A stretch of DNA of 41,732 nt from a virus. Position 1 is the first letter of the stretch; the number at the start of each line of letters is the position of its first letter. The DNA lies in IMG/VR virus record IMGVR_UViG_3300045988_038035, positions 1 through 41,732 of that record, one strand, 5' to 3'. The notes under the pieces are model-generated. The model was not told the DNA's origin, made no database searches, and saw only the letters and a program-made list of their open reading frames with translations. Of the stretch, positions 1 to 41,732 are shown in pieces. The position numbers and the translations under genes were made by a program.

Positions 1-141
1 CTTTTTGAGATCTTCTGTCAAGTTCTCCACGCTGCGCTGCGCCGCATAAAGCTGCGTACTGGGGTCCTGCTGCTTGAGCAGCCGCGTTGCCTGCAACGCC
101 TGTGCCGCATTTCTCTGGCGCTTTACGATGGTGTCGAGCAC
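1..141. repeat. Terminal direct repeat, copy 1 (identical to 41592..41732)
   Basis: Base-by-base comparison of both ends. Identity starts at ctttttgagatc and ends at gtgtcgagcac. Confidence 0.97.
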
Positions 142-16529: not shown

Positions 16530-18533
16530 TTACATACCGGGCATGGCAGCGCTGCTGCCGGTTTCCATGTTTGGCTTGCTGCGCTCAGCGAGCTTCTGCA
16601 TGTAGGGGGTCTTTGCCCCTTGCGCGTCCGCGTTCCTGCTCTCGATGCCGCCGCTGCTGCCCGTCGGCTGCGATGTGCCGCCGCCCGGCGCCGCGCCGGG
16701 AGCGGCAGCGCCAAGGCCCATATCCTGCCCCGTGAGCTGACCGATGACCGCAAGCGCCTTTTGCAGCTGCTCGCTCTGCTGCTGCACCACGTTGTACAGC
16801 GTCGCGCCCTCGTTGACCTGGCTCTTGATCTTGTCGATGCCCTCAAAATCCATCATGTCGAGTGCGATCATGCTCTCCTGCGCCCTGTCGGGGGAGAAGA
16901 ACCCGAGCGAATACAACTCCTTTGCTCGCTCGTTCTGCTCTGCGCGGGAGAACGGATTCTTTTTCTGCGCCTTGATCTTGATGTCAAAGACCGGCCTGCG
17001 GAACAGCTCATTGCCGAGGCTGTCCACGCCCGTCACCTGATCGCCCAGCTCGTTCATGCCGATTTGCGCGTACTCGTAGGGCATCTCGTTCGTAATGCGG
17101 AAAGATCTCGTCGCGTCGTAGAACTGCCGCATGCGCTCAATACACATGCGCACGATCTTTGTCTGCGCGCGGTAGCCGCCAGCAATCATGTCACGGCTCG
17201 CCTTGTTGCCCGCTTCCTGCAATGCGCTGATCGCCGCTGCGGCTGTCGCGCCGGAGGACGTTCCACCGTTGGAAACGTCGCGGTTTGCGCTCGTTTCCTT
17301 CATCTCATCGATCTTCATCTGCACGATGTTGGCATAGATGCCGTCCAGCGGGCGCGTCACCACCTCGCGCAGGCGGTTGTCGTTGATCTCGCCCGACACA
17401 TGGATAATGGGTTTGCGCCAGTCAAGGAACTCCTGCTCGTTGATGTTCAGGCTCTCGCTTGCGAAATACCGGCGCTTGCTGCCCATCATCGACGTTTCGA
17501 GGATATTCCCCCACAGCTTGTCGATGTATAGCTGCGGATCCTTGGCGATGGCCGTATAGCCGAAGCCTGCGGGCGAGCCCCTCTCCGGAAAGAGCGTGTC
17601 GAACACAACCGGATATTCCCCGTCCGCGTAAAAGCCGTCCTCGGCGCATTCCGGGTCATTTTCGCTCGCGTAGATGATGTGCTCCTCATCGATAAACTTG
17701 ACGTAATGCAGCACCATGCGCCCGTTTACGTCCTTTTTGCGGTAGTACCAGTCCACCACGGCAACCTTGCCGCTCGTGTCGATGGAATCGTCATACTCAT
17801 ACTTTGCAAGCGACACGCTGCTGCCGCCGATCTTGCCCGCGAACTGCGGGTATTCCTCCTCGAGGATATCCTCATCGACAAGCGACACGGTAAACACGTT
17901 CCGGCTCTTCTGAATATCCTCAACGCCCGGTTCCCAGAAGATATTCAGCGGGTCGATACGCTCAATGGCAATGTCGCCAAGGCCGTTTTCCTTTTCCTTG
18001 TCCCAGAAAATGCCGTAGATCGCGACGCCGTGCTTGAGCTTTTCCCACCATTCGACGCTGTAGGTGTTGTCAAATTCATTGTATTCCATGATGACCGGCA
18101 GCACCGCCGAGAGCGTCTTTGCGCTTTCCTCGTCGCTCGGCTCGCGCGGCAGGCACACCGGCTCGGGGTAGTTGTCCATTGCGTCCGCGTGCTTGTTGGT
18201 GATGGAATTGAAAAGCCATGCGCTCACAGGCTCGGGCGCTTCTCCTGCGTCCTGCGTGCCGCGCCGAATGTCCTCCCAGTGCCGCAGCTTCCACCATTGC
18301 TCTTCGCTGATGATGCGGTTTTCGAAGTTGCTCTTGCCTCGCCGATACTTCTGCAGCGTCTCTACCGCCTCGCCGACCTCCTTGCTGCCGATGGCCGGGC
18401 CGCTGGTAAGCGTAACGTCGCTGTCCCGGAATGCGCCGACAAGCGGCGCGCCGCCCTTTGCCCCGAGCATTGCCGCCGTGCCCGCCGCATCCGCCTGCTG
18501 CTGCGTCTGCGGGTATCTTCTCATGTTTGCCAT
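16530..18533 (-). CDS. Portal protein
   Basis: 667 aa, immediately downstream of terL. SD AAGGGGGAAGG. Call is based on size and position. Confidence 0.8.
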   Translation of the reverse strand: MANMRRYPQTQQQADAAGTAAMLGAKGGAPLVGAFRDSDVTLTSGPAIGSKEVGEAVETLQKYRRGKSNFENRIISEEQWWKLRHWEDIRRGTQDAGEAPEPVSAWLFNSITNKHADAMDNYPEPVCLPREPSDEESAKTLSAVLPVIMEYNEFDNTYSVEWWEKLKHGVAIYGIFWDKEKENGLGDIAIERIDPLNIFWEPGVEDIQKSRNVFTVSLVDEDILEEEYPQFAGKIGGSSVSLAKYEYDDSIDTSGKVAVVDWYYRKKDVNGRMVLHYVKFIDEEHIIYASENDPECAEDGFYADGEYPVVFDTLFPERGSPAGFGYTAIAKDPQLYIDKLWGNILETSMMGSKRRYFASESLNINEQEFLDWRKPIIHVSGEINDNRLREVVTRPLDGIYANIVQMKIDEMKETSANRDVSNGGTSSGATAAAAISALQEAGNKASRDMIAGGYRAQTKIVRMCIERMRQFYDATRSFRITNEMPYEYAQIGMNELGDQVTGVDSLGNELFRRPVFDIKIKAQKKNPFSRAEQNERAKELYSLGFFSPDRAQESMIALDMMDFEGIDKIKSQVNEGATLYNVVQQQSEQLQKALAVIGQLTGQDMGLGAAAPGAAPGGGTSQPTGSSGGIESRNADAQGAKTPYMQKLAERSKPNMETGSSAAMPGM

Positions 18534-18545
18534 ATCCTTCCCCCT

Positions 18546-19976
18546 TTAGGTGTGTTGGAACCACGCATATCTGTCGTAGCTCTGCTTGTTGATGTCGAGT
18601 GGGTCGTATACGACCGGCTTCGGCGGCGTGTTCTTCCGCGCCGCGATGGGATTCTCCATGCACACATAGCGCGTCATGTCGTAGATGTGATCCTCCTGCT
18701 CGGTGTCCACGTCCTCAACGTGCTTTTCGTCGTAAACGAGGTTCGGCACCGTGCGGATAAAATTTTTGCAGGTGTCAAACACATACAGCATCGGGATCCC
18801 GTTCTCGTCAAATGCAAGCCGGTGGTGCAGCTGCATCTTTCCGTCGATTCGCGCATTGTCTCCGCGCTCGAAATAAACGCGCTCCCGCTCAAAGAGTGAG
18901 CCGATGCTTTCCGTTCCCTGCGTCCCCCAGATGGCGGGGTCGCCCACGCGGTAGATGTGTCTCCCCTTGAGATTCGGATCCTCTGCCTCGATGCGCTTGA
19001 TCTCCCGCGCTACCGCCGTCGGCTCCATTTTCACGCCCTCGTTCGGCGTGCCCGTGCAGCCGTAGTACTCCCCGATGTGATAGAGCCGCCTGTCCCCGTC
19101 AACCGCAAACCAGCCGATGGCAAAAGGCCGCGAATATCCCCAGTCCATCGCACACCAGATCGGCCACTCGCGCGGGATCTGGAACGGCGCGATGACGTGC
19201 GTGTTGATGCGGTCGCGGTAGTGATCGCTGTCGTTGCGCCACTCGGTAAACACCTGCCCCGAGAAAGTATCCCAATCGCCGTATAGCAGCGCGTTTTTTT
19301 CTGCTTCCGGCATGGCGGCAAGGCGTGTCAGATAGTTTTCATCGTTCTGCAGCAGGATTTTGTTGTCAAAAACCGTGCTCGGAACGAAGATCCTGCTCTT
19401 CATGCGGATTTCTTCGTGCCCGTCTGGAAAGCGCACGGTCGCCTCTTCCCGCACCGTCTGCATCGGTCGCGCCGCCGTGATAAAGCGCTCCTTGACCCAG
19501 CCATGCCCGATGCCGCCGGGGTTTGCCGTGCTGCGGATATACACCCGCGTCCCCGGCCCGTTCGGTCGGTTGCGGGAGAAAAGATAGCTGTACTCTTCCC
19601 ATGTAAAGTGCGTCAGCTCGTCGAATGCGATGAAGTCATACGCCTGACCCTGATACTTGATCTTGTCCTTTGCGTACTGCATCGAGCCGAAAATGATCTT
19701 TGCCCCGCTCGGAAATGTCCATGTGTGGTTGCTGCCGTTGTATCGTGCGCCCGGATAGATGCGCGGATAATAGTTGAGTGTCTTGTCGATCAGCTCGGCA
19801 AGCTGCGGGAAGGTCTTTCGTAGGATCAGCGCCTTATAATAGCGCACGTCCACCTGCCGCAGCGCCTCGATGACCAGGGCATCAGATTTTCCCCCGCCTA
19901 ACCTGCAGCACCGCCGTACAGAGCTTCGTCCTCCCAACGGGACATAAACAACGCCTGTTTCGGCTGTGGCGTCCAT
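18546..19976 (-). CDS. terL: Terminase large subunit, main body (frame-disrupted near the 5' end)
   Basis: Motifs GGGKSDAL, YDFIAFDELTHF, DWG, EDHIYD. The track ATG at 19976 has no SD and gives a non-canonical N-terminus. Confidence 0.9.
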   Translation of the reverse strand: MDATAETGVVYVPLGGRSSVRRCCRLGGGKSDALVIEALRQVDVRYYKALILRKTFPQLAELIDKTLNYYPRIYPGARYNGSNHTWTFPSGAKIIFGSMQYAKDKIKYQGQAYDFIAFDELTHFTWEEYSYLFSRNRPNGPGTRVYIRSTANPGGIGHGWVKERFITAARPMQTVREEATVRFPDGHEEIRMKSRIFVPSTVFDNKILLQNDENYLTRLAAMPEAEKNALLYGDWDTFSGQVFTEWRNDSDHYRDRINTHVIAPFQIPREWPIWCAMDWGYSRPFAIGWFAVDGDRRLYHIGEYYGCTGTPNEGVKMEPTAVAREIKRIEAEDPNLKGRHIYRVGDPAIWGTQGTESIGSLFERERVYFERGDNARIDGKMQLHHRLAFDENGIPMLYVFDTCKNFIRTVPNLVYDEKHVEDVDTEQEDHIYDMTRYVCMENPIAARKNTPPKPVVYDPLDINKQSYDRYAWFQHT

Positions 19977-19993
19977 ACGACGCTACGTGCCAC
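19898..19993 (-). CDS. terL: terL N-terminal segment in the neighbouring frame (MARSVVWTPQPKQALFMSRWEDEALYGGAAG-TAG)
   Basis: GTG at 19993 lies 8 nt after GGAGG and overlaps the terS end. The peptide carries the first half of the terminase Walker-A region. Confidence 0.6.
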   Translation of the reverse strand: MARSVVWTPQPKQALFMSRWEDEALYGGAAG

Positions 19994-20462
19994 TGTCATC
20001 ACCTCCCGCGTCCACAGGCTGCGGCAGCACCGCAGGAAGTTCCGCGACGCCGCACACATTTTCTGCCGCCTCTTCCGGTTTTTTCTCTTCCGCCGTCCAC
20101 CGGAAATTGTATTTCAGGCTGAATTCCGCGCCTCGCTGCCCGTCTCGGTCGAAGAGCCGTTCCTCTGCGTAAGCCTCGATGCGGGCCTTCGCGCGCGTAA
20201 CCGTGTCAACAAACCCTTTCTTCGCCTGATAGTTCAGCAGCGCCTGTCTGCTCGTAAATCCCAGTGCAAGCGCCAGCCCCGTCACCGTCGGCGGTCGCTG
20301 GTGAATGATAAACGGCTGCCCGTATTTGTCGAGGATCGGCATGCCGTCATCGCCGATAATCGGCTCGCCCTTGCAATCCTCAAAATATTGGTCAATGACG
20401 GCTTGCATTTCTTCGACCGTCGCATATTTGGGAGGGTGCCCATTTTTTGCCATGACCGTCAC
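19983..20462 (-). CDS. terS: Terminase small subunit
   Basis: KYATVEEMQAVIDQYFEDC...PPTVTGLALALGFTSRQALLNY is typical of a terS HTH. Start is either GTG 20462 or ATG 20453. Confidence 0.8.
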   Translation of the reverse strand: MTVMAKNGHPPKYATVEEMQAVIDQYFEDCKGEPIIGDDGMPILDKYGQPFIIHQRPPTVTGLALALGFTSRQALLNYQAKKGFVDTVTRAKARIEAYAEERLFDRDGQRGAEFSLKYNFRWTAEEKKPEEAAENVCGVAELPAVLPQPVDAGGDDSGT

Positions 20463-20568
20463 GCCCTTTCCCTATCTATTTTTTTGCTGCAGGCCCGCCC
20501 ACCCTCAGCCTATGTCTGACGCAGCATTTTTGCCCCGGCCCGGGAGGAAGCAGGTCGTCCTACCATCG

Positions 20569-20602
20569 ACGGTATCACGCGCTTTCCCACTTCTCACCAC
20601 GG
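20569..20602 (-). promoter_or_regulatory. Late promoter-like motif, site A: CCGTGGTGAGAA-N-TGATACCGT
   Basis: Located in the AT-rich leader upstream of terS. Confidence 0.5.
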
Positions 20603-22037: not shown

Positions 22038-22334
22038 TCAGCCCTCCTGTTCCACGTATTCAAGCCGGCTCCGCAGCCGCCGGACCTTGTATGCCCTCTG
22101 CTCCTCCACCGCGTCCTCGACCTCAAACTCGATCGCCATCTGGTCGAGCATGATCCCGACGTCGGCGATCTCTTCGGCGATGTTGGCGAGCGTGTTTCCG
22201 TCCACGCGCCCGCGCAGGAATTTGCACAGCACGTCCTGCAACTCGGCCATTTCCTCAAAAACCATCATGATTTGCGCCTGTGCGCCGTAGCGGCTGAGCG
22301 CTGCACAGAATGTTTTGCGTTCCACGTCAGTCAT
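22038..22334 (-). CDS. MazG-like nucleotide pyrophosphohydrolase
   Basis: FEEMAELQDV...AEEIADV helical EExxE-type motifs. 98 aa. Confidence 0.6.
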   Translation of the reverse strand: MTDVERKTFCAALSRYGAQAQIMMVFEEMAELQDVLCKFLRGRVDGNTLANIAEEIADVGIMLDQMAIEFEVEDAVEEQRAYKVRRLRSRLEYVEQEG

Positions 22335-22840
22335 TTCTTCATCGCTTCCAATGCTTTCTTTTGGTGCTCATATTTATTGAGACTTACACGTTCAAAAAGA
22401 GCGCGTTCTGGCGGCCATCCGGCTCTCAGTCTATCATATAACGTATACGGGTTTATACCTAAAAAGTCAGCCCATTCATGCAATGTTTTTTCGGTATCTA
22501 TTACTTTAATTTTCACAGTCACTTCCAAATTGTTCGCCTGAGTTTTCCTGCCAACCCAACGGCAATTTTCTGGGCAATAACCCCCATTATTATCTATCCT
22601 GTCAATGGTAAGACCTTCTTTATACCCGTTCTCATTCGCCCACTTTTTAAACGCTAAAAAACTTTGCCAATCTTCGCATACCGAGATACCTCGGCCCCCG
22701 TATCGCTTATAATGCGTATCAGTCTTAAGGGAGCATCTCTTACGCATAGAACACCAGACGTTGTATAGTTTTGTTCCTTTTCCACCATGCTTATAGTTGC
22801 CATTATGCTCGCCAGCCTGACTTGCGCTACCATGCGGCAT
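22331..22840 (-). CDS. HNH/AP2-like DNA-binding protein (homing-endonuclease-like)
   Basis: LYNVWCSMRKRC...YGGRGISVCEDW...TIDRIDNNGGYCPENCRW. The gene is visibly AT-richer than its flanks. Confidence 0.6.
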   Translation of the reverse strand: MPHGSASQAGEHNGNYKHGGKGTKLYNVWCSMRKRCSLKTDTHYKRYGGRGISVCEDWQSFLAFKKWANENGYKEGLTIDRIDNNGGYCPENCRWVGRKTQANNLEVTVKIKVIDTEKTLHEWADFLGINPYTLYDRLRAGWPPERALFERVSLNKYEHQKKALEAMKK

Positions 22841-24028: not shown

Positions 24029-24693
24029 TCCTCCCTAATGTCTCCGCCCCATTGCTCCGCCATAGCTTTGGCGATGCCGGGGAAGGTCTTTGCGCGGTTT
24101 TTCGCCCTATCCGTGGTAAACATGCCTTTATGCTGTTCCCCATGCTTATGGCTGTAGCTGCCGCTCGGGCACCATGTTGCTGTCGGCTCAACAATATTGG
24201 TCGGTTCCAACGGTTGGACACCACGTTCCCACAGCAAGGTTTTTTTGCTAAACGGGTGCCCATATTAATAGGGGTGTATGGCTTGGGTTGGCTCTGGATA
24301 CTCAAAGACTTTACTCGGCGTTGGATTCTCAATCACGACTTTTTCGCAGTCTGCTGCCCAAATAGCCAAAAACAGTGCTTTGCCGCATAGTCCCTCATAA
24401 TACCGCTTAATATTGAGTTTGCCGCCTTTGTATAAGTGCCGCGCTCCTGCGTTGCTTGTCTTAGTGCAGGGAGGGAAAGCAATAACCAAATCCCACTTGC
24501 CAACATCATGTGTCTGTCCGTCCATAGTGGTCACTTGCCCTCCCTCGATGGCCTTGAGCGCATCGCCTAAGATGTGCCACTCCGGATGCCCGCCAGACGG
24601 CTCCTGTAGGTCACAGGAATATGCCTCATGTCCCAATGCGCGGAACGCCTTGCAGCATTCCTGGGATTCCTCGCAGGCAAATAAAACATTCAT
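24025..24693 (-). pseudogene. DNA cytosine-C5 methyltransferase-like gene interrupted by an in-frame TAA (24265-24267)
   Basis: Track ORFs 24265..25146 (real start ATG 24693, MNVLFACEES) and 24025..24237 are in the same frame, separated only by TAA. Sequence reads ...IAFPPCTKTSNAG...ENP...QAIHPY*YGHPFSKKTLLWERGVQPLEPT... Confidence 0.55.
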
Positions 24694-24935
24694 CTTCTCC
24701 CCTCGCATTCCCCGAACATCTCCCGGAACGGCTTCCCCGTGATCTCTTCCAGCTTGAGCAGAAATTTCACGGTGCATTCGCAGTCGCCGAACGTCCACCG
24801 AATGATGGTCGACTGCGCAACGCCGCACTCTTTTGCCAACTGGATCTGCGACAAGTCCGTCTTTTCCAGCGCTTCTTTTAGCGCCGGATAGACGCAGCGC
24901 TCGAACGGTGTCTTTGCCCGATGCACTCTCAGCAT
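24690..24935 (-). CDS. HTH DNA-binding protein, 81 aa (start refined)
   Basis: SD GGGGAGGTG. Motif LSQIQLAKECGVAQSTIIRW. Confidence 0.65.
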   Translation of the reverse strand: MLRVHRAKTPFERCVYPALKEALEKTDLSQIQLAKECGVAQSTIIRWTFGDCECTVKFLLKLEEITGKPFREMFGECEGRR

Positions 24936-25165
24936 GTCGGCACCTCCCCGAAGTATTTCGCGTATTCCCTGTCGCTCCACGCCGTCCAGACACTCGCGAA
25001 TCTGCGCTTTTTCTGTGGATTCTGCCGCATGGCAGAAACAGAGTGCGATACCGCGCTGAGGTCAACGCCGCACTTTTTGGCAAGCTCTGTCGGCGAGTCT
25101 GCCACGCAGGTAACCACGCCTGCATGCTTGTGGTCAAGCGCCACATACAGCTGTCTGTATTTCAT
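24929..25165 (-). CDS. Hypothetical protein, 78 aa
   Basis: Track ORF. Confidence 0.6.
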   Translation of the reverse strand: MKYRQLYVALDHKHAGVVTCVADSPTELAKKCGVDLSAVSHSVSAMRQNPQKKRRFASVWTAWSDREYAKYFGEVPTC

Positions 25166-26297: not shown

Positions 26298-26500
26298 GGT
26301 TTTGCTCCCCTTTCGTAGTGCAGCAGCAGCGCCCGAGCGATCGGGCAGCGCCGCCATTCTTCGTTGGCGCAGTAGCGCCGCGTATATTCGTCCAGCTCTT
26401 CTTTCGGCAGTTTGACTTGGGCGCCCTCGCAGTTGAGATAGTCGCGGTAGTCCCGCGAGTAAAACGGGCACTTGAAAATGCCCCCGCGATACCCGCTCAC
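26294..26500 (-). CDS. Hypothetical protein, 68 aa (GTG start in GTGA overlap)
   Basis: Overlaps the DnaC-like stop. Confidence 0.5.
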   Translation of the reverse strand: MSGYRGGIFKCPFYSRDYRDYLNCEGAQVKLPKEELDEYTRRYCANEEWRRCPIARALLLHYERGAKP

Positions 26501-27321
26501 GGCGCACCGCCTGCCAGCACCGATTTGACGTGCCGCATGCGCTGATTCGCCTTGTCTCGTCTCAGGCTGCCGCTCTTGAACACCAGTGGCGTGCACATCT
26601 CGAGAATGCGGTCATAGATGCGCTGATAGGTCATGTCTTTCGGCCTGCACAGCTCGTCCAGCGTCAGGTTCGTGGTGACGATCAGCGGCTTTTTTGCCTT
26701 GTATCGCTCATCGATGACCGTGTAGACCGTCTCCATCGCGTACTCGCTGCTGCGTTCCGCGCCGAGATCGTCGATCACCAGCAGCGGATAGTAATGCACC
26801 TGCTCGATGATCTCCTGCTTGTCATATCCAGCGTTGAGAATGCGCGGGAAGCTCGTAATCATCGCTGGAATGCCGCGATCAATCAGCTCGTTGGCGATGC
26901 ACGCCGCCGCGAAGGTCTTCCCGTTGCCGGTGTTGCCCCACAGCAGGAGTCCGTTGTTCTCTCTCCGCATATCGTCCCACGCATCGGCATAGCGCTTGCA
27001 TTTGACGATTTCCTCGCTCATCGTTGCCTTGTCGAACCGGCACGCCGTCAGGCTCTTGTCGCGGATTCCGTCAGCACGCAGCGTTTCGATGCGCAGTCGC
27101 TTTTCGCGGTCAGCGCGTGCTTTTTTTTCGGCCTCGTATTCTCGCGCCGCGCAAGCACACTGACACCCGACAAGGCGGACGCTCCCGCCGATGGGGATCC
27201 GGCACTGCTTCGGCGTGTTGCAATGGCCGCAGTACAGCAGCCCGTCTTTCTCGTAGTCGACCAGATCGCGCACAGGCTCGGCCTTTTTCGCGATGCTGTC
27301 GATCAATACGTCAACGTTCAT
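26497..27321 (-). CDS. DnaC/IstB-like AAA+ helicase loader
   Basis: Walker A WGNTGNGKT and Walker B LLVIDDLGAE. Confidence 0.85.
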   Translation of the reverse strand: MNVDVLIDSIAKKAEPVRDLVDYEKDGLLYCGHCNTPKQCRIPIGGSVRLVGCQCACAAREYEAEKKARADREKRLRIETLRADGIRDKSLTACRFDKATMSEEIVKCKRYADAWDDMRRENNGLLLWGNTGNGKTFAAACIANELIDRGIPAMITSFPRILNAGYDKQEIIEQVHYYPLLVIDDLGAERSSEYAMETVYTVIDERYKAKKPLIVTTNLTLDELCRPKDMTYQRIYDRILEMCTPLVFKSGSLRRDKANQRMRHVKSVLAGGAP

Positions 27322-28121
27322 AGGCTTCCCTCCGTGTTGCCGTAGTCGTAGACAAACGGCTTATTTTTCGGTGCTTTGCCGCCCTTGTTCTGCTCTTCGG
27401 CGAGCCAATTAGTAATGAAACGCTTAACCCCTCCGCGCGTCTTTCGCTTGGTAGGGTTTGCATCGCACCACCCTGCCATGTTTCTAAGTTGTTGCTTAAC
27501 ATCGACATTGGGGTATAGCGCTTCCCATTTCGATACGTCGGGAGATAAGACATCGAAAAAAGACCCATCGTTAAGCACGAGAGAGACGATTGGCGGCGTG
27601 TGAGCCGCTTGCGGCTCCGCGCATCCATACTCTTCTTTACTCTCCTCTTCTCTACTTTCCTCTACTTTACTTTGTCTCTCGATGTCAGCATTTTTCGAAA
27701 GAATGTTTACATTTTTTGCTTGAATGTCAACATTAGGCAAAATTCGGGCAACATCGACCAGAAGGATGTTGTAATCGACTTCGAGAGTTTTACGGCGGCT
27801 GACTGCCTCAAAGTACCTTTCCTGTATGCCTTTAGAGGTCAATACGTGGTACTTGTCATACTTCTCTTTGTCGAACATCCCTCGTCTGATAGAAGCCTCT
27901 ATTATTTCGGAAACGACGCTCCCACCCAACCCGACCTTGCGGGCGAACAAAAGCGCAACCTCCTCTGTCCATTCAATGTAGTAACCCGCCTTGCCGTAAA
28001 TCTCTTGCAGCAAGTGAACGACTACACCAAATCCTGTCAAGCCAAATTCTGCTTCTATCAGTTCAAACTTTGCGTTCAATGTGACATCAAGCGGAAAGTA
28101 ATCAATCCCGCTTTTTGCCAT
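27318..28121 (-). CDS. DnaD-like replisome organiser (DUF4373/Lin1244-type N-terminus)
   Basis: IDYFPLDV...GFGVVVHLLQEIYGKAGYYIEW...LTSKGIQERY. Confidence 0.8.
   Translation of the reverse strand: MAKSGIDYFPLDVTLNAKFELIEAEFGLTGFGVVVHLLQEIYGKAGYYIEWTEEVALLFARKVGLGGSVVSEIIEASIRRGMFDKEKYDKYHVLTSKGIQERYFEAVSRRKTLEVDYNILLVDVARILPNVDIQAKNVNILSKNADIERQSKVEESREEESKEEYGCAEPQAAHTPPIVSLVLNDGSFFDVLSPDVSKWEALYPNVDVKQQLRNMAGWCDANPTKRKTRGGVKRFITNWLAEEQNKGGKAPKNKPFVYDYGNTEGSL
27680..27734. repeat. Three palindromic iterons AATGTnnACATT at exact 21-bp spacing (putative ori)
   Basis: cgATGTcagCATT at 27680, gAATGTttACATT at 27701, gAATGTcaACATT at 27722, all inside the AT-rich part of the DnaD-like gene. Degenerate copies continue to about 27780. 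Confidence 0.6.
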
Positions 28122-33980: not shown

Positions 33981-35096
33981 ATGGCGAATTGCATCAAATG
34001 TAAAGCAGCGCTGCCGGAAGGCGCGCTGTTTTGTCCTTTCTGCGGCAAAAAACAGGTCGCCGAAAAGCGCAAGGCGCTCAAGCGTGCCAACGGAACCGGC
34101 ACGGTATATAAGCTCTCAGGGCGCAGGTCGCGCCCGTGGGTCGCCGCAAAGAATCGGGTCATCATCGGATACTACCCCCGCAAGACCGACGCCGCAGATG
34201 CCTTAGAACGGCTTACGGGCCGTCCGCTGGACGAGCGATACAATATGACCTTTTCCGAAGTGTATGAAGATTGGAAGGCCGAGCATTTCCGTGAGATCGG
34301 CCCCTCCGGCGTAGAATCCTACGAAAACGCCTACAAGGTGTTCAAGCCCCTCTACGATAAGAAATTCCGCGACCTGCGCGCTTCAGACTTCCAGTCCGTT
34401 GTGGATCTCCACATGGGAAAATCTCACTCCACCGTGTCGAAGTACAAGCAGCTCATCACGCAAATGTCGAATTGGGCGATCCGCGAGGAAATCTGCTCCA
34501 CCAACTTTGCGAAATTTGTGAAACTCCCCGAGAACGTCAAGAAAGAAAAGGAAGTATTCACCGCGGAAGAGATCGAGAAGATCGAGGCAGACGGAAGCGA
34601 CGCCGCGAAGATCGTCCTCATGCTCCTTGCCACCGGCATGCGCATCGGTGAGTTGTTCTCCCTGCCGCTCGCGGATTATCATGAAACCTATGTAGTCGGC
34701 GGCGAGAAAACAAAAGCCGGACGGGATCGCGTCATTCCGATCCGCCCGGAGGGGAAACCGTATTTTGCCTACTTCGCCGCAAAAGCGACCGGGAAGCTGC
34801 TGCTCTCCGGATACGAGGGGCAGAAGATCCCCGCCAACTTCCGCCGCCGCGACTACTATCCCATGCTGGATCGCCTCGGGATAAAAAGAAAGACCCCCCA
34901 TGCCACGCGCCACACTTACGCCACGCGCGCGGTCAAGGAAGGTCTGCCCCCGGAATTTCTTCAAAAAATCATCGGTCACGCGGATTATTCCACCACTGCG
35001 AACATTTATACGCACCTCGATCCCGATACACTTGTTGCCGCTGTTACTAACACGCTACAAACAGTGTCTGAAAAAAGCAAAAAGAAAAAGCCCTGA
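33981..35096 (+). CDS. int: Tyrosine integrase with N-terminal Zn-ribbon
   Basis: CIKC...CPFCG, then HATRHTYATRA...GHADYSTTANIYTHL. Confidence 0.93.
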   Translation: MANCIKCKAALPEGALFCPFCGKKQVAEKRKALKRANGTGTVYKLSGRRSRPWVAAKNRVIIGYYPRKTDAADALERLTGRPLDERYNMTFSEVYEDWKAEHFREIGPSGVESYENAYKVFKPLYDKKFRDLRASDFQSVVDLHMGKSHSTVSKYKQLITQMSNWAIREEICSTNFAKFVKLPENVKKEKEVFTAEEIEKIEADGSDAAKIVLMLLATGMRIGELFSLPLADYHETYVVGGEKTKAGRDRVIPIRPEGKPYFAYFAAKATGKLLLSGYEGQKIPANFRRRDYYPMLDRLGIKRKTPHATRHTYATRAVKEGLPPEFLQKIIGHADYSTTANIYTHLDPDTLVAAVTNTLQTVSEKSKKKKP

Positions 35097-39419: not shown

Positions 39420-41732
39420 TTACGTCGCCTTTCTGCGCGCGATCTTGAGCTGTTCGTCCACTCTTGCGCGGTTCCAGTGTCGAATGCTCTTCCCTACGCC
39501 GAAGTCCTCAAATAGGGCCGCGCGCTGTTTATCGGAAAGCCCCTTCTGCTGATAAACAAGCTCCATGATCTGTAAGCCTTCGCTGTTGCTGATGGTTTCA
39601 CCGTTTTTGTCCTTCAGGCTTTTGATCCCGCCTTTCGCCAGATAGAGCACAATATACTGGGCTTCTGAAACGCCCGTTTTTTTGACGGTATCTATGGCCT
39701 TTGCCGCCCACCCGTCCGTTTGGTAATTGCTCACGCTCATTTTCCCAACGATGTTGGCATATTCGTAGGCTTTCGCAACGGCATCTGCCTTATCGCCGTC
39801 GCTCATGGACTTATAGCTCGCAAGTCCCGTGAGCTCGCTGACGATCTTATAGGAAGTCTGCCCGCGCTTTGTGGCGTACTTGACGTATTCCTCGCCGGTC
39901 AACTGTTTGTTTTCCTTATTCACGGTAAAAGATTTTGGCGCGCGCTGCGGCAGGACTTTGGACTCACCGGTCGCCTCATACAGGCGGCTCAATTCATCTT
40001 CCATTTTGCTGCCGCTTACCTTCGAGGTATACGCGGGATTCGCAAAATTGTTAAATGCCCGCGCGGCCACGCCTCCGGAGTTTTCCGTGCGCCCCCATGC
40101 GTCGATAAAGGGAATCTGCCCGTAGTCAACGCCCGGAATACGCGCGCTGGCCTTGCCGAGCGCATATTGCATATCCGGCGTCAGGAATTTGTTCTTATCC
40201 GTATAGGTCGTCATGCGCGTGCTTTCGCCCGTGCGCTCCGCCTGCCCGAAGACCGTCGGGATACCCTGCGTCAAATAACTCGTCGCCGCGCTTGCTACCG
40301 CACTGGTTAGTGCGTTTGTGTCCCCGGAGGACGCATACCCCACCGCGTCAAAAACGTCGTTCAGGCTTTGCAGACAGCTCATGGAAAGAAGCGGGTCCGT
40401 CACGTTGCTTGCTGCCTGAAGCATATCACTCATAGTGAGATACCCGTTGTTCGCCTGCATCTGCTCGTAAAGGTTTGCCCCGACGAAAAACGGAAGCGCT
40501 TCCGGCGCAAGCCAATCCAGCGTAATACTCGTGCCATTTGGCAGCTCCAGTGCGTATTCCTGATGCCCTTGCAGCTCGTCGAACTTTTTCTTCTTCTCGT
40601 CATCACCGCCGCTGCCGCGAAGAATGCCCTCTTTCGCCATATAAAGACCGAGCATCATCAGCCCCGTGCCGGTCAGTCCGGCGGCGGCCCGGTCGATCAT
40701 TTCGGTCGCCTGCATATTCCCTTTCTGCACCTGCACAAGGTCATAGCTTATGCTTTTGAGGAAACCAATAGGGCTGTATTCCACGCCGCGCACCAGAATG
40801 TTGGCTGGTGTCTTGCGGAACGGCAGGATTCCTTCGGTGAGGGTGCTTCCGAGGCGTTTCATCTTGTTATCCCCGCGGTATCTGCCGAGATCGGAGATCA
40901 TCTGTGAAAACGCATTGGTGTCTCGATAGGTCGCTTTCTGCGCCTCTCTGATCGCGTATTCGCGTGCCGCTTCAATGCCTTTCCCGCCAGATACCTGCTC
41001 CGCGGTAATGCCATTTGCTTTGCAGAATTGCGCCAGCGCCGCCGCGTAATGCGGCTTGGAGAACCATGCGTCTTCCGCATCCAGCGCCGTGCTGTTGAAT
41101 TTGCGCATCGCTTCCAGCAGCTTCGGTTTGAAGATCGTGCGTCCTTCCTCGATTTCCTGTCGCACATTGACATTATCATTGTACTTGCCGCTGCCGAGAG
41201 CCTGCTCGCGAATGTTGGCATAGTCACTCCATGCGGCCTTGATAAGCCCTGCGTCCTTCGTCGTCAGGATTGCCTTCGTGCGTCCGACTTTGCCGCCGCT
41301 CACCGCGTTCGCAGCGCTCTCAATGCCTGCGCCGATGACGTTCTTTACCGTGACAGCAGGAACAAATCCTACGTTTCCAACGATGTTGCGCACATGCGTG
41401 CGTGGATTACCAAGCATCGAAAAGTAGCGCCAAGCGTTCCATTTGTCAATGAAGCGGCTCGGCATCTGTCTGCCGATATCGCGATAGATTTCCTTCATCG
41501 CCTCGGTGCGCGCATCGTCGTCCTTCGCGTTCAGGAACTTCTCAGCGAGGTCGCGGTCAATCTTCAGATCAGGGGCCTTTTCCCCGTACTGCTTTTTGAG
41601 ATCTTCTGTCAAGTTCTCCACGCTGCGCTGCGCCGCATAAAGCTGCGTACTGGGGTCCTGCTGCTTGAGCAGCCGCGTTGCCTGCAACGCCTGTGCCGCA
41701 TTTCTCTGGCGCTTTACGATGGTGTCGAGCAC
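39420..41732 (-). CDS. Giant protein, 3' part (724 unique codons including TAA stop, plus 47 codons duplicated by the terminal overlap)
   Basis: Track ORF runs to the window edge. Its apparent GTG start is only the window boundary. The upstream continuation is nt 5175..142 of the circle. Confidence 0.8.
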   Translation of the reverse strand: MLDTIVKRQRNAAQALQATRLLKQQDPSTQLYAAQRSVENLTEDLKKQYGEKAPDLKIDRDLAEKFLNAKDDDARTEAMKEIYRDIGRQMPSRFIDKWNAWRYFSMLGNPRTHVRNIVGNVGFVPAVTVKNVIGAGIESAANAVSGGKVGRTKAILTTKDAGLIKAAWSDYANIREQALGSGKYNDNVNVRQEIEEGRTIFKPKLLEAMRKFNSTALDAEDAWFSKPHYAAALAQFCKANGITAEQVSGGKGIEAAREYAIREAQKATYRDTNAFSQMISDLGRYRGDNKMKRLGSTLTEGILPFRKTPANILVRGVEYSPIGFLKSISYDLVQVQKGNMQATEMIDRAAAGLTGTGLMMLGLYMAKEGILRGSGGDDEKKKKFDELQGHQEYALELPNGTSITLDWLAPEALPFFVGANLYEQMQANNGYLTMSDMLQAASNVTDPLLSMSCLQSLNDVFDAVGYASSGDTNALTSAVASAATSYLTQGIPTVFGQAERTGESTRMTTYTDKNKFLTPDMQYALGKASARIPGVDYGQIPFIDAWGRTENSGGVAARAFNNFANPAYTSKVSGSKMEDELSRLYEATGESKVLPQRAPKSFTVNKENKQLTGEEYVKYATKRGQTSYKIVSELTGLASYKSMSDGDKADAVAKAYEYANIVGKMSVSNYQTDGWAAKAIDTVKKTGVSEAQYIVLYLAKGGIKSLKDKNGETISNSEGLQIMELVYQQKGLSDKQRAALFEDFGVGKSIRHWNRARVDEQLKIARRKAT
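41592..41732. repeat. Terminal direct repeat, copy 2 (identical to 1..141)
   Basis: Same comparison. The length of 141 matches a k-mer overlap left by a de Bruijn assembler on a circular contig. Confidence 0.97.

Follow-up and report, generated by a model that had tools for sequence, protein, structure and literature searches.

The large terminase subunit gene (terL) in a temperate P22-like phage genome, and in related temperate P22-like phages of Oscillospiraceae, is probably decoded by a programmed +5 stop-hop, a minimal bypass that would proceed by re-pairing of the P-site tRNA. The window, that is, the whole stretch of DNA that we analysed, comprises positions 1–41,732 of the IMG/VR record IMGVR_UViG_3300045988_038035 (41,732 nucleotides, nt), and all coordinates of terL and of the small terminase subunit gene terS are on its minus strand. 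In the mechanism that we propose, ribosomes would initiate at GTG 19993, decode 31 codons, and then pause, with the P site holding peptidyl-tRNA-Gly on GGU and the A site holding UAG. Before release factor 1 (RF1) acts, the anticodon would leave the wobble-paired GGU in some fraction of ribosomes, the mRNA would slip by 5 nt, and the same tRNA would re-pair with the fully complementary GGC that overlaps the stop. This GGC would be the first cognate triplet and would allow a full Watson-Crick pair, compared with the weaker G:U wobble at GGU. Decoding would restart at GGG and yield a TerL of 480 amino acids (aa) with an intact Walker A loop (LYGGAAGGGKS) and the junction peptide WEDEALYGGAAGGGK (...AAGGGKS), while terminating ribosomes would release a 31-aa peptide only. 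The hop signal appears to consist of GGU-UAG-GC only, placed early in the reading frame (codon 32).

The initial annotation of this DNA had preferred a hop from GGT to GGC over the TAG. Our comparisons support that preference on sequence grounds, as the predicted product is the family consensus, the junction is conserved, and both pieces of the gene are under selection. As in bypassing, one conserved protein would be made from two pieces of open reading frame (ORF), the take-off and landing codons would be cognate for the same tRNA, and the A site holds a slow stop codon.

The layout of the terS/terL junction agreed with what had been read from it initially (Table 1). The Shine-Dalgarno (SD) sequence was said to serve GTG 19993, and the frame opened there (frame A) to end in GGT followed by TAG; positions, strand, and translation were all confirmed. 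GGGAGGTGA lies upstream of an ATG or GTG start in every sequence listed in the clades of the window and of the related recoded sequence L002, and the L002 lineage has ATG at the position equivalent to the GTG of the window. The annotated ORF (476 aa; ATG 19976 to 18546) had been noted for its start without an SD and its non-canonical N-terminus, and both points hold: its first 26 residues are MDATAETGVVYVPLGGRSSVRRCCRL, followed by GGGKSDALV, and this frame-B peptide is not conserved. The ATG is a by-product of the conserved frame-A Val-Trp codons GTA TGG. The second segment lies in frame −1/+2 relative to frame A and encodes GGKSDALVIEAL... on through the nuclease domain, so that the joined TerL (31 + 449 = 480 aa) has the same length as continuous relatives. 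The two halves had been taken for a terminase N-terminus and P-loop, and profile searches bear this out. The joined protein matched Pfam PF03237 (Terminase_6N; E = 6.5e-11, residues 26–248, profile positions 2–209) and phrog_979 (terminase large subunit; E = 1.4e-59, from residue 4), whereas the alignment of the annotated ORF to Terminase_6N begins only at profile position 9. When the continuous relative P0003 was searched against the genome with tblastn, its residues 4–26 aligned in one frame (19984–19916) and residues 31–478 in the other (19898–18555), and no second terL was found in the genome. Neither phmmer nor a profile search matched TerL to PDB sequences, and an AlphaFold2 model (mean predicted local distance difference test score 50.6, <50 for residues 1–34) was of too low confidence to be used.

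Table 1 Features at the terS/terL junction of the window
Feature	Position	Strand	Remark
Shine-Dalgarno sequence GGGAGGTGA	19999..20007	-	Serves the true terL start; read directly
True terL start, GTG	19991..19993	-	Overlaps the end of terS
terL segment 1, frame A, codons 1-31 (MARSVVWTPQPKQALFMSRWEDEALYGGAAG)	19901..19993	-	Matches the N-terminus of continuous relatives
Take-off codon GGT (Gly31)	19901..19903	-	
In-frame stop TAG, directly 3' of the take-off GGT	19898..19900	-	Final G shared with the landing codon (first base there)
Landing codon GGC	19896..19898	-	Proposed re-pairing of the same tRNA-Gly, no amino acid added
5 nt absent from uninterrupted relatives, GG[TTAGG]C	19897..19901	-	Placement ambiguous by 1-2 nt
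terL segment 2, frame B, 449 codons	18546..19895	-	Resumes at GGG 19895-19893, stop TAA 18548-18546
Annotated ATG of the 476-aa ORF	19974..19976	-	Not a real start; without SD
terS (GP3_package family)	19983..20462	-	PF16677 E = 1e-15; phrog_606; overlaps the terL start by 11 nt

A search of 5.8 billion clustered proteins returned ~8,000 TerL homologues. All of those at ≤80% identity were uninterrupted (~480 aa), reading EDEALYGGAAGGGKSDALVIEAL, and at the DNA level such continuous relatives carry GCN GGC GGN GGN AAA. The only homologues closer than 80% were P0001 (98%) and P0002 (91%; a cluster of 1,757 member sequences), which are both 476-aa proteins with the same out-of-frame N-terminus. 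The product of +5 re-pairing in the window would equal the family consensus LYGGAAGGGKSDAL residue for residue and also in length, and the P-loop reads exactly GG[AS]AGGGK[ST] in 116/116 family members with a readable N-terminus. GGTTAGGY was present at the same place in 80/80 IMG/VR loci retrieved with P0002 and in the ENA contig that encodes P0001; overall, it was carried by 82/82 close relatives. At the nucleotide level, the comparison with related terL genes that the initial annotation had pointed to showed the same junction kept in close and divergent relatives. The prophages with terL split in this way inside the ATP-binding loop form a widespread human-gut family.

The junction was also recovered when its sequence was left free. 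With the flanking P-loop codons fixed and any 5 nt allowed at the position of the insertion, 98/98 matches in IMG/VR read GGT TAGG[CT]. A looser scan of this kind found 91 metagenome stretches and 5 contigs from bacterial genomes (labelled Oscillibacter sp. ER4, Candidatus Flemingiibacterium, Oscillospiraceae metagenome-assembled genome (MAG), unnamed bacterium, and 'Rikenellaceae' MAG), and 94 of these 96 carried GGT-TAG-GY. Anchoring the scan on GGTTAGGC plus Gly-Gly-Lys gave 107 IMG/VR matches, all from this TerL family except for the chance match L484. The octamer GGTTAGGC occurs once in the window genome against 0.65 occurrences expected; it is not improbable on its own, and its significance comes from its position and conservation. 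In total, ~200 contig stretches carried the GGT-TAG-GY junction. They were drawn from IMG/VR, metagenomes, and bacterial genomes, were produced by many studies and assemblers, and include an integrated prophage. Healed forms were not seen: no continuous protein exceeded 80% identity among the 5.8 billion clustered proteins, the sequence of the two best-sampled lineages without the 5 nt had 0 matches in IMG/VR vs. ~90 for the recoded form, and the P0001 and P0002 protein clusters contained no 480-aa members. We note that there were only two junction variants, each of a single base, namely L264 with a take-off GGC (GGC TAGGC) and L266 with a landing GGA (GGT TAGGA). L264 is a 1,328-nt contig, and both may be errors, decaying copies, or tolerated variants.

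Both pieces of terL are under strong purifying selection, each in its own frame. Among the 82 close sequences, 19/24 variable columns upstream of the TAG were third positions of frame A, and the variable columns downstream were distributed over the codon positions as 74/49/346 (third position, 346/469). Nonsynonymous (dN) and synonymous (dS) divergence between the window and L002 was estimated by the Nei-Gojobori method. Segment 1 in frame A gave a dN of 0.064 and a dS of 1.16 (omega ~0.055), compared with a dN of 0.276 and a dS of 0.07 (omega ~4) for the same upstream bases in frame B, and segment 2 gave an omega of 0.061 over 449 codons. In more distant recoded lineages, synonymous sites were saturated and the octamer was still kept. 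The usual signs of a pseudogene, i.e., an omega relaxed to near 1 and sporadic lineage-specific lesions, were not observed.

Codon usage at and around the junction was compared between lineages that are at least 5% apart in a 250-nt context (19 recoded, 51 continuous; Table 2). The take-off codon was GGT in 80/81 unique contexts and in 10/10 lineages that are at least 10% apart. The landing codon was GGC in 77, GGT in 3, and GGA in 1 of the 81 unique contexts, and GGY in 10/10 lineages at least 10% apart; the two Gly codons after it use A, G, and C freely in the recoded lineages. The stop was TAG in every recoded sequence. A GGY at +8 would be a site of mis-landing and would thus shorten the P-loop, and a −1 slip onto GGG would become possible if the take-off codon were preceded by G. 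Such patterns favour a scanning, re-pairing tRNA-Gly(GCC), which predicts them, over the −1 and +2 routes considered below, which do not. That one tRNA-Gly with anticodon GCC serves both GGT and GGY is what we infer from wobble rules and not from host genomes.

Table 2 Codons and bases at the junction in recoded and continuous lineages
Position	Recoded lineages	Continuous lineages	Fisher p
Take-off codon GGT	19/19	1/51 (homologous codon)	3e-16
Landing codon GGY	19/19		
Next Gly codon (+8) GGY	4/19	39/51	5e-5
Base before take-off codon is G	0/19	14/51	0.008

Other ways of joining the two frames account for these data less well. A −1 ribosomal frameshift at GCN-GGU-UAG, with the tRNA-Gly slipping back and UUA (Leu) read next, would also link frame A to frame B (...GGAAG-L-GGGKS; expected junction peptide WEDEALYGGAAGLGGGK), and shifting is known to be stimulated by an A-site stop codon (PMC5009743). 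It is improbable here, as the site (GCN GGT TAG) has no X XXY YYZ slippery heptamer, and GGU is preceded by A, C, or T, with G in 0/81 unique contexts, so that the −1 tRNA-Gly would have to re-pair on NGG with two mismatches. Its product would also carry a two-residue insertion in Walker A, which is seen in 0/116 family members, and the restriction of the landing codon to GGY next to unrestricted neighbouring Gly codons would be left unexplained. We give just as little credence to a +2 shift without P-site re-pairing, in which the A site would skip UA and GGC would be read as a new Gly (...GGAAGGGGKS; expected junction peptide WEDEALYGGAAGGGGK). Such a shift would restore the correct frame, and +2 events are described in E. 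coli, to judge from the title of Weiss et al. 1987 as cited in PMC5009743. However, its product would be one residue longer than every continuous relative, and an incoming Gly-tRNA could read any GGN, which leaves both the GGY landing and the GGT take-off restrictions without explanation.

Even smaller is the chance that the gene is simply broken or the junction an artefact, whether through a recent 5-nt insertion, an assembly or sequencing error, or an independent TerL start in frame B. It is true that the annotated 476-aa ORF exists and that a few related contigs (L179, L140) show other disruptions of terL. The initial annotation had named an assembly error and a fresh inactivating insertion as alternatives, and we find both refuted. 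The identical junction recurs across studies and across assemblies made independently of one another. The genomes are complete, and the number of projects and assemblers, the many recoded contigs of ~43 kb, and coverage of up to 114x together exclude an assembly or sequencing error. The insertion has persisted to or beyond synonymous saturation with no healed close relative, with an omega of ~0.06 on both pieces since it arose, and the lack of a second terL in the genome also speaks against an inactive copy. With regard to a start in frame B, 25/79 unique contexts have an in-frame stop (TGA in many) upstream of the P-loop and then no ATG, GTG, or TTG before the landing codon; independent initiation therefore cannot supply the Walker A motif. 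It is similarly remote that the 5 nt are neutralised elsewhere, by TAG reassignment or suppression, RNA editing or splicing, transcriptional slippage, or DNA phase variation. Gut phages that have recoded TAG exist, and a run of G and A does follow the site on its 3' side. Nevertheless, readthrough of the TAG would stay in frame A, which is non-homologous and non-conserved beyond the TAG and soon reaches TGA, and reassignment is at odds with the terS gene of the same genome, which ends in an ordinary TAG stop (19983–19985), and with the lack of an encoded suppressor tRNA. The G and A runs differ between lineages (GGGGGAAAA, GGTGGAAAA, GGCGGCAAG), which makes transcriptional slippage unlikely; splicing finds no Rfam intron or other RNA family match, and variants without the 5 nt, as expected from phase variation, were absent from the IMG/VR scan and the protein clusters.

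Several points weigh against a +5 stop-hop nonetheless, and our arguments should be read with them in mind. The translation event itself is one that we infer from sequence. An alignment of 14 divergent recoded contexts (−60 to +80; MAFFT and RNAalifold) gave only 12 weak pairs at −5.6 kcal/mol, with a covariation term of −0.5 kcal/mol (essentially none), and positions 18400–20600 had no Rfam match at E ≤ 1. No phage tRNA (a special tRNA-Gly, one with an expanded anticodon, or a suppressor) was found in the window by ARAGORN. Short hops that are not stimulated are low-level in known systems (bioRxiv 10.1101/2024.12.09.627546), and the yield of TerL might therefore be small. The lineage statistics in Table 2 assume independence, which is only approximately true. 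Finally, the patchy distribution of the recoded state (4–8 gain or loss events, see below) is not explained by a simple single origin. An SD-like element was likewise not found within 15 nt upstream of the site in divergent lineages, and the N-terminal peptide, which bears on a possible nascent-peptide signal, is equally conserved in uninterrupted relatives. The cis stimulators of T4 gene 60 (stem-loop, nascent-peptide signal, and SD-like element) are thus not seen here; they are not required for short stop-hops.

The recoded TerLs are down to 62% identical to one another, and each is ~70–82% identical to some continuous relative. In neighbour-joining trees, the recoded state needs 6 changes (4–8 across 60 bootstrap replicates), with recoded lineages (L261, L262, L168/L331, L269/L303/L310/L271, L138, and the window/L002 clade) scattered among uninterrupted ones. 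Synonymous differences in the flanks reach to the edges of the octamer, a pattern that speaks against recent transfer by recombination. The alternatives are an ancient insert that was lost again and again (the GG repeats would permit precise loss) and repeated gain.

TerL is a nuclease-ATPase and a known trigger of Avs-type immunity. One possible purpose of the stop-hop, modelled on prfB (release factor 2, RF2), is a regulatory use, in which the hop would limit or time TerL synthesis or couple it to RF1. We consider it possible, but rather doubtful, that the 5-nt stop-hop is an actively maintained regulatory or defensive device and not a tolerated scar; if it were, its 4–8 occurrences in the tree would be the outcome of selection that acted repeatedly, either by favouring gains or by keeping an insert that is easily lost. 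Such a device might be a valve based on competition with RF1 that keeps TerL scarce in lysogens or early infection. It might also be that the insert abolishes a site in the conserved P-loop coding sequence at which a homing or restriction nuclease cuts, as has been proposed for the T4 gene 60 insert, which would protect against the MobA homing endonuclease (PMC5009743). Linkage of the insert to a homing endonuclease was rejected, since the HNH endonuclease gene of the window (22331–22840) has a counterpart upstream of terL in just 1 of 47 dereplicated recoded loci (and in 0/52 continuous loci), counting loci with enough upstream sequence. Avoidance of a restriction site was also rejected as a general cause, given that GCCGGC is interrupted in the L002 lineage only and the window lineage has GCAGG.

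Stop-hops between matched codons that flank a stop are documented in E. coli constructs (PMC5009743), including hops of +5 and +6 (Weiss, Dunn, Atkins, and Gesteland 1987; O'Connor et al. 1989; summarised in PMC5009743 and bioRxiv 10.1101/2024.12.09.627546). As proposed for terL, the peptidyl-tRNA there leaves the codon before the stop and re-pairs a few nt downstream, with the A-site stop as a pause and without an elaborate stimulator. Those hops are engineered and low-level, whereas the terL site occurs naturally, belongs to an essential gene, and has been kept across deeply divergent lineages; in addition, its landing codon overlaps the stop (GGU UAG GC), and the pairing would change from wobble at take-off to Watson-Crick at landing. 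T4 gene 60 resembles the proposed terL hop in its Gly take-off codon with UAG next to it, its matched landing codon (also Gly), a peptidyl-tRNA kept in the P site, and one protein from two out-of-frame ORFs of a phage gene. It differs in its 50-nt gap and in its need for a nascent-peptide signal, take-off and 5' stem-loops, and a mini-SD, compared with 5 nt to be crossed, no conserved structure found, and a nascent chain of 31 residues at the terL site. The phiHau3 / StrepC.1 large terminase was reportedly put forward as a bypassing candidate by Smith et al. in 2013. Candidate bypassing of 10-nt inserts is described for terL of the Streptomyces phage phiHau3 / StrepC.1 (3/100 genes examined; Antonov et al. 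2023, PMC10732093). That case resembles ours in its short frame-disrupting insert with flanks that abut in relatives, in its junction after a Gly codon (KGWG|KD), and in that the invariance of the junction among family members favours a hop rather than a 1-nt shift. It is unlike ours in its trigger, the rare sense codon UUA with which its inserts begin (a hungry codon, bldA tRNA), and in its strong predicted structures and SD. The terL site described here has a UAG trigger and a 5-nt insert, occurs in hundreds of contigs, and belongs to the P22-like Terminase_6N family with Oscillospiraceae hosts; its zero-frame A-site codon is UAG, and TTA is found only in another frame.

The prfB gene has a similarly early in-frame stop (codon 26 vs. 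codon 32 in terL), and P-site re-pairing there competes with the release factor, a likeness that makes release-factor-sensitive expression of terL plausible. TerL is not a release factor, so that no autoregulatory logic is evident. In prfB, the ribosome shifts by +1 on CUU U, an SD lies 3 nt upstream, and the new codon overlaps the old one, whereas the change needed in terL is +2/−1 and would be achieved as +5 onto a non-overlapping codon. The 'byps' of Magnusiomyces capitatus mitochondria (27–55 nt) are also natural skipped inserts with matching take-off and landing codons; they are mitochondrial, longer, mobile, structured, and spread over many genes, unlike the single 5-nt site in one gene family considered here. 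Natural bypassing is listed only for gene 60 (with its homologues), the phiHau3 terminase, and Magnusiomyces mitochondria in a 2016 review (PMC5009743) and a December 2024 preprint (bioRxiv 10.1101/2024.12.09.627546), and short stop-hops are known essentially from synthetic E. coli constructs in the same two sources. No earlier report of a GGT-TAG-GY site in terL was found in the literature searched (full text). The site differs from the known systems in being natural, minimal (5 nt), broadly conserved in another TerL family, and apparently free of stimulators.

Hundreds of abundant phage genomes from the human gut keep an eight-nt candidate hop signal, GGU-UAG-GC, in an essential gene. If the hop is confirmed, it would show that the ribosomes of Clostridia can be trusted to hop without elaborate signals. 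The site would also offer a compact natural model for the rules of take-off and landing, for wobble vs. Watson-Crick pairing, and for competition with RF1. Should a regulatory or defensive reading prove true, gene control by a short hop that is natural, widespread, and stimulator-free would be seen here for the first time. In any case, gene callers mis-annotate terL genes of this kind as ORFs of 476 aa or less with a false N-terminus and an incomplete Walker A, which affects TerL-based phage taxonomy, completeness calls, and calls of "defective prophage".

The first ~141 nt of the window (1–141) recur at 41591–41732, and this terminal overlap indicates a complete phage genome of ~41.6 kb (56.9% GC). 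The genome encodes a P22-type portal and internal virion proteins, as in P22-like phages, and a tyrosine integrase (phrog_1; 33981–35096, plus strand), from which we conclude that the phage is temperate. One bacterial contig (L476; 309,907 nt, 112x coverage) has at its end a prophage with the same recoded terL. The window phage looks viable.

A free-standing HNH endonuclease gene lies ~2.3 kb upstream of terL in the window (22331–22840, minus strand; phrog_3377, E = 4e-52) and is probably a mobile homing-type gene. In L140 (5947–6807, minus strand) and L352, terL carries an insertion of 855–861 nt between TANPGGI and GHGWVKERF, and the 160-aa cluster members P0130 and P0139 have the same insertion. 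It contains an ORF of ~200 aa that resembles the HNH endonuclease of the window; the flanks are in frame and stops lie inside, so that the insert is not an intein. It may be an intron or a homing endonuclease gene cassette, and no Rfam intron model matched L140 at gathering thresholds.

Two other terL genes depart from the common form. L179 has an extra frame break in the C-terminal (nuclease) part, and the L263 frame extends to 519 aa and ends in an unrelated tail (...LLTSGEWKRLDELKEGDDLWSM), which could be another insertion, possibly intein-like, or the end of the contig. Three copies of the recoded site (L286, L298, and L341) lie on one contig, CDZB01072142.1 (102,583 nt), which suggests either tandem prophages or a concatemeric assembly of a ~43-kb phage genome. 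In the window, genes for a DNA methyltransferase, a DnaC-like helicase loader, and a replication initiator were found upstream of the packaging genes (24265–25146 and 26497–28121, both minus strand), and the order of the genes is as usual for a temperate phage.

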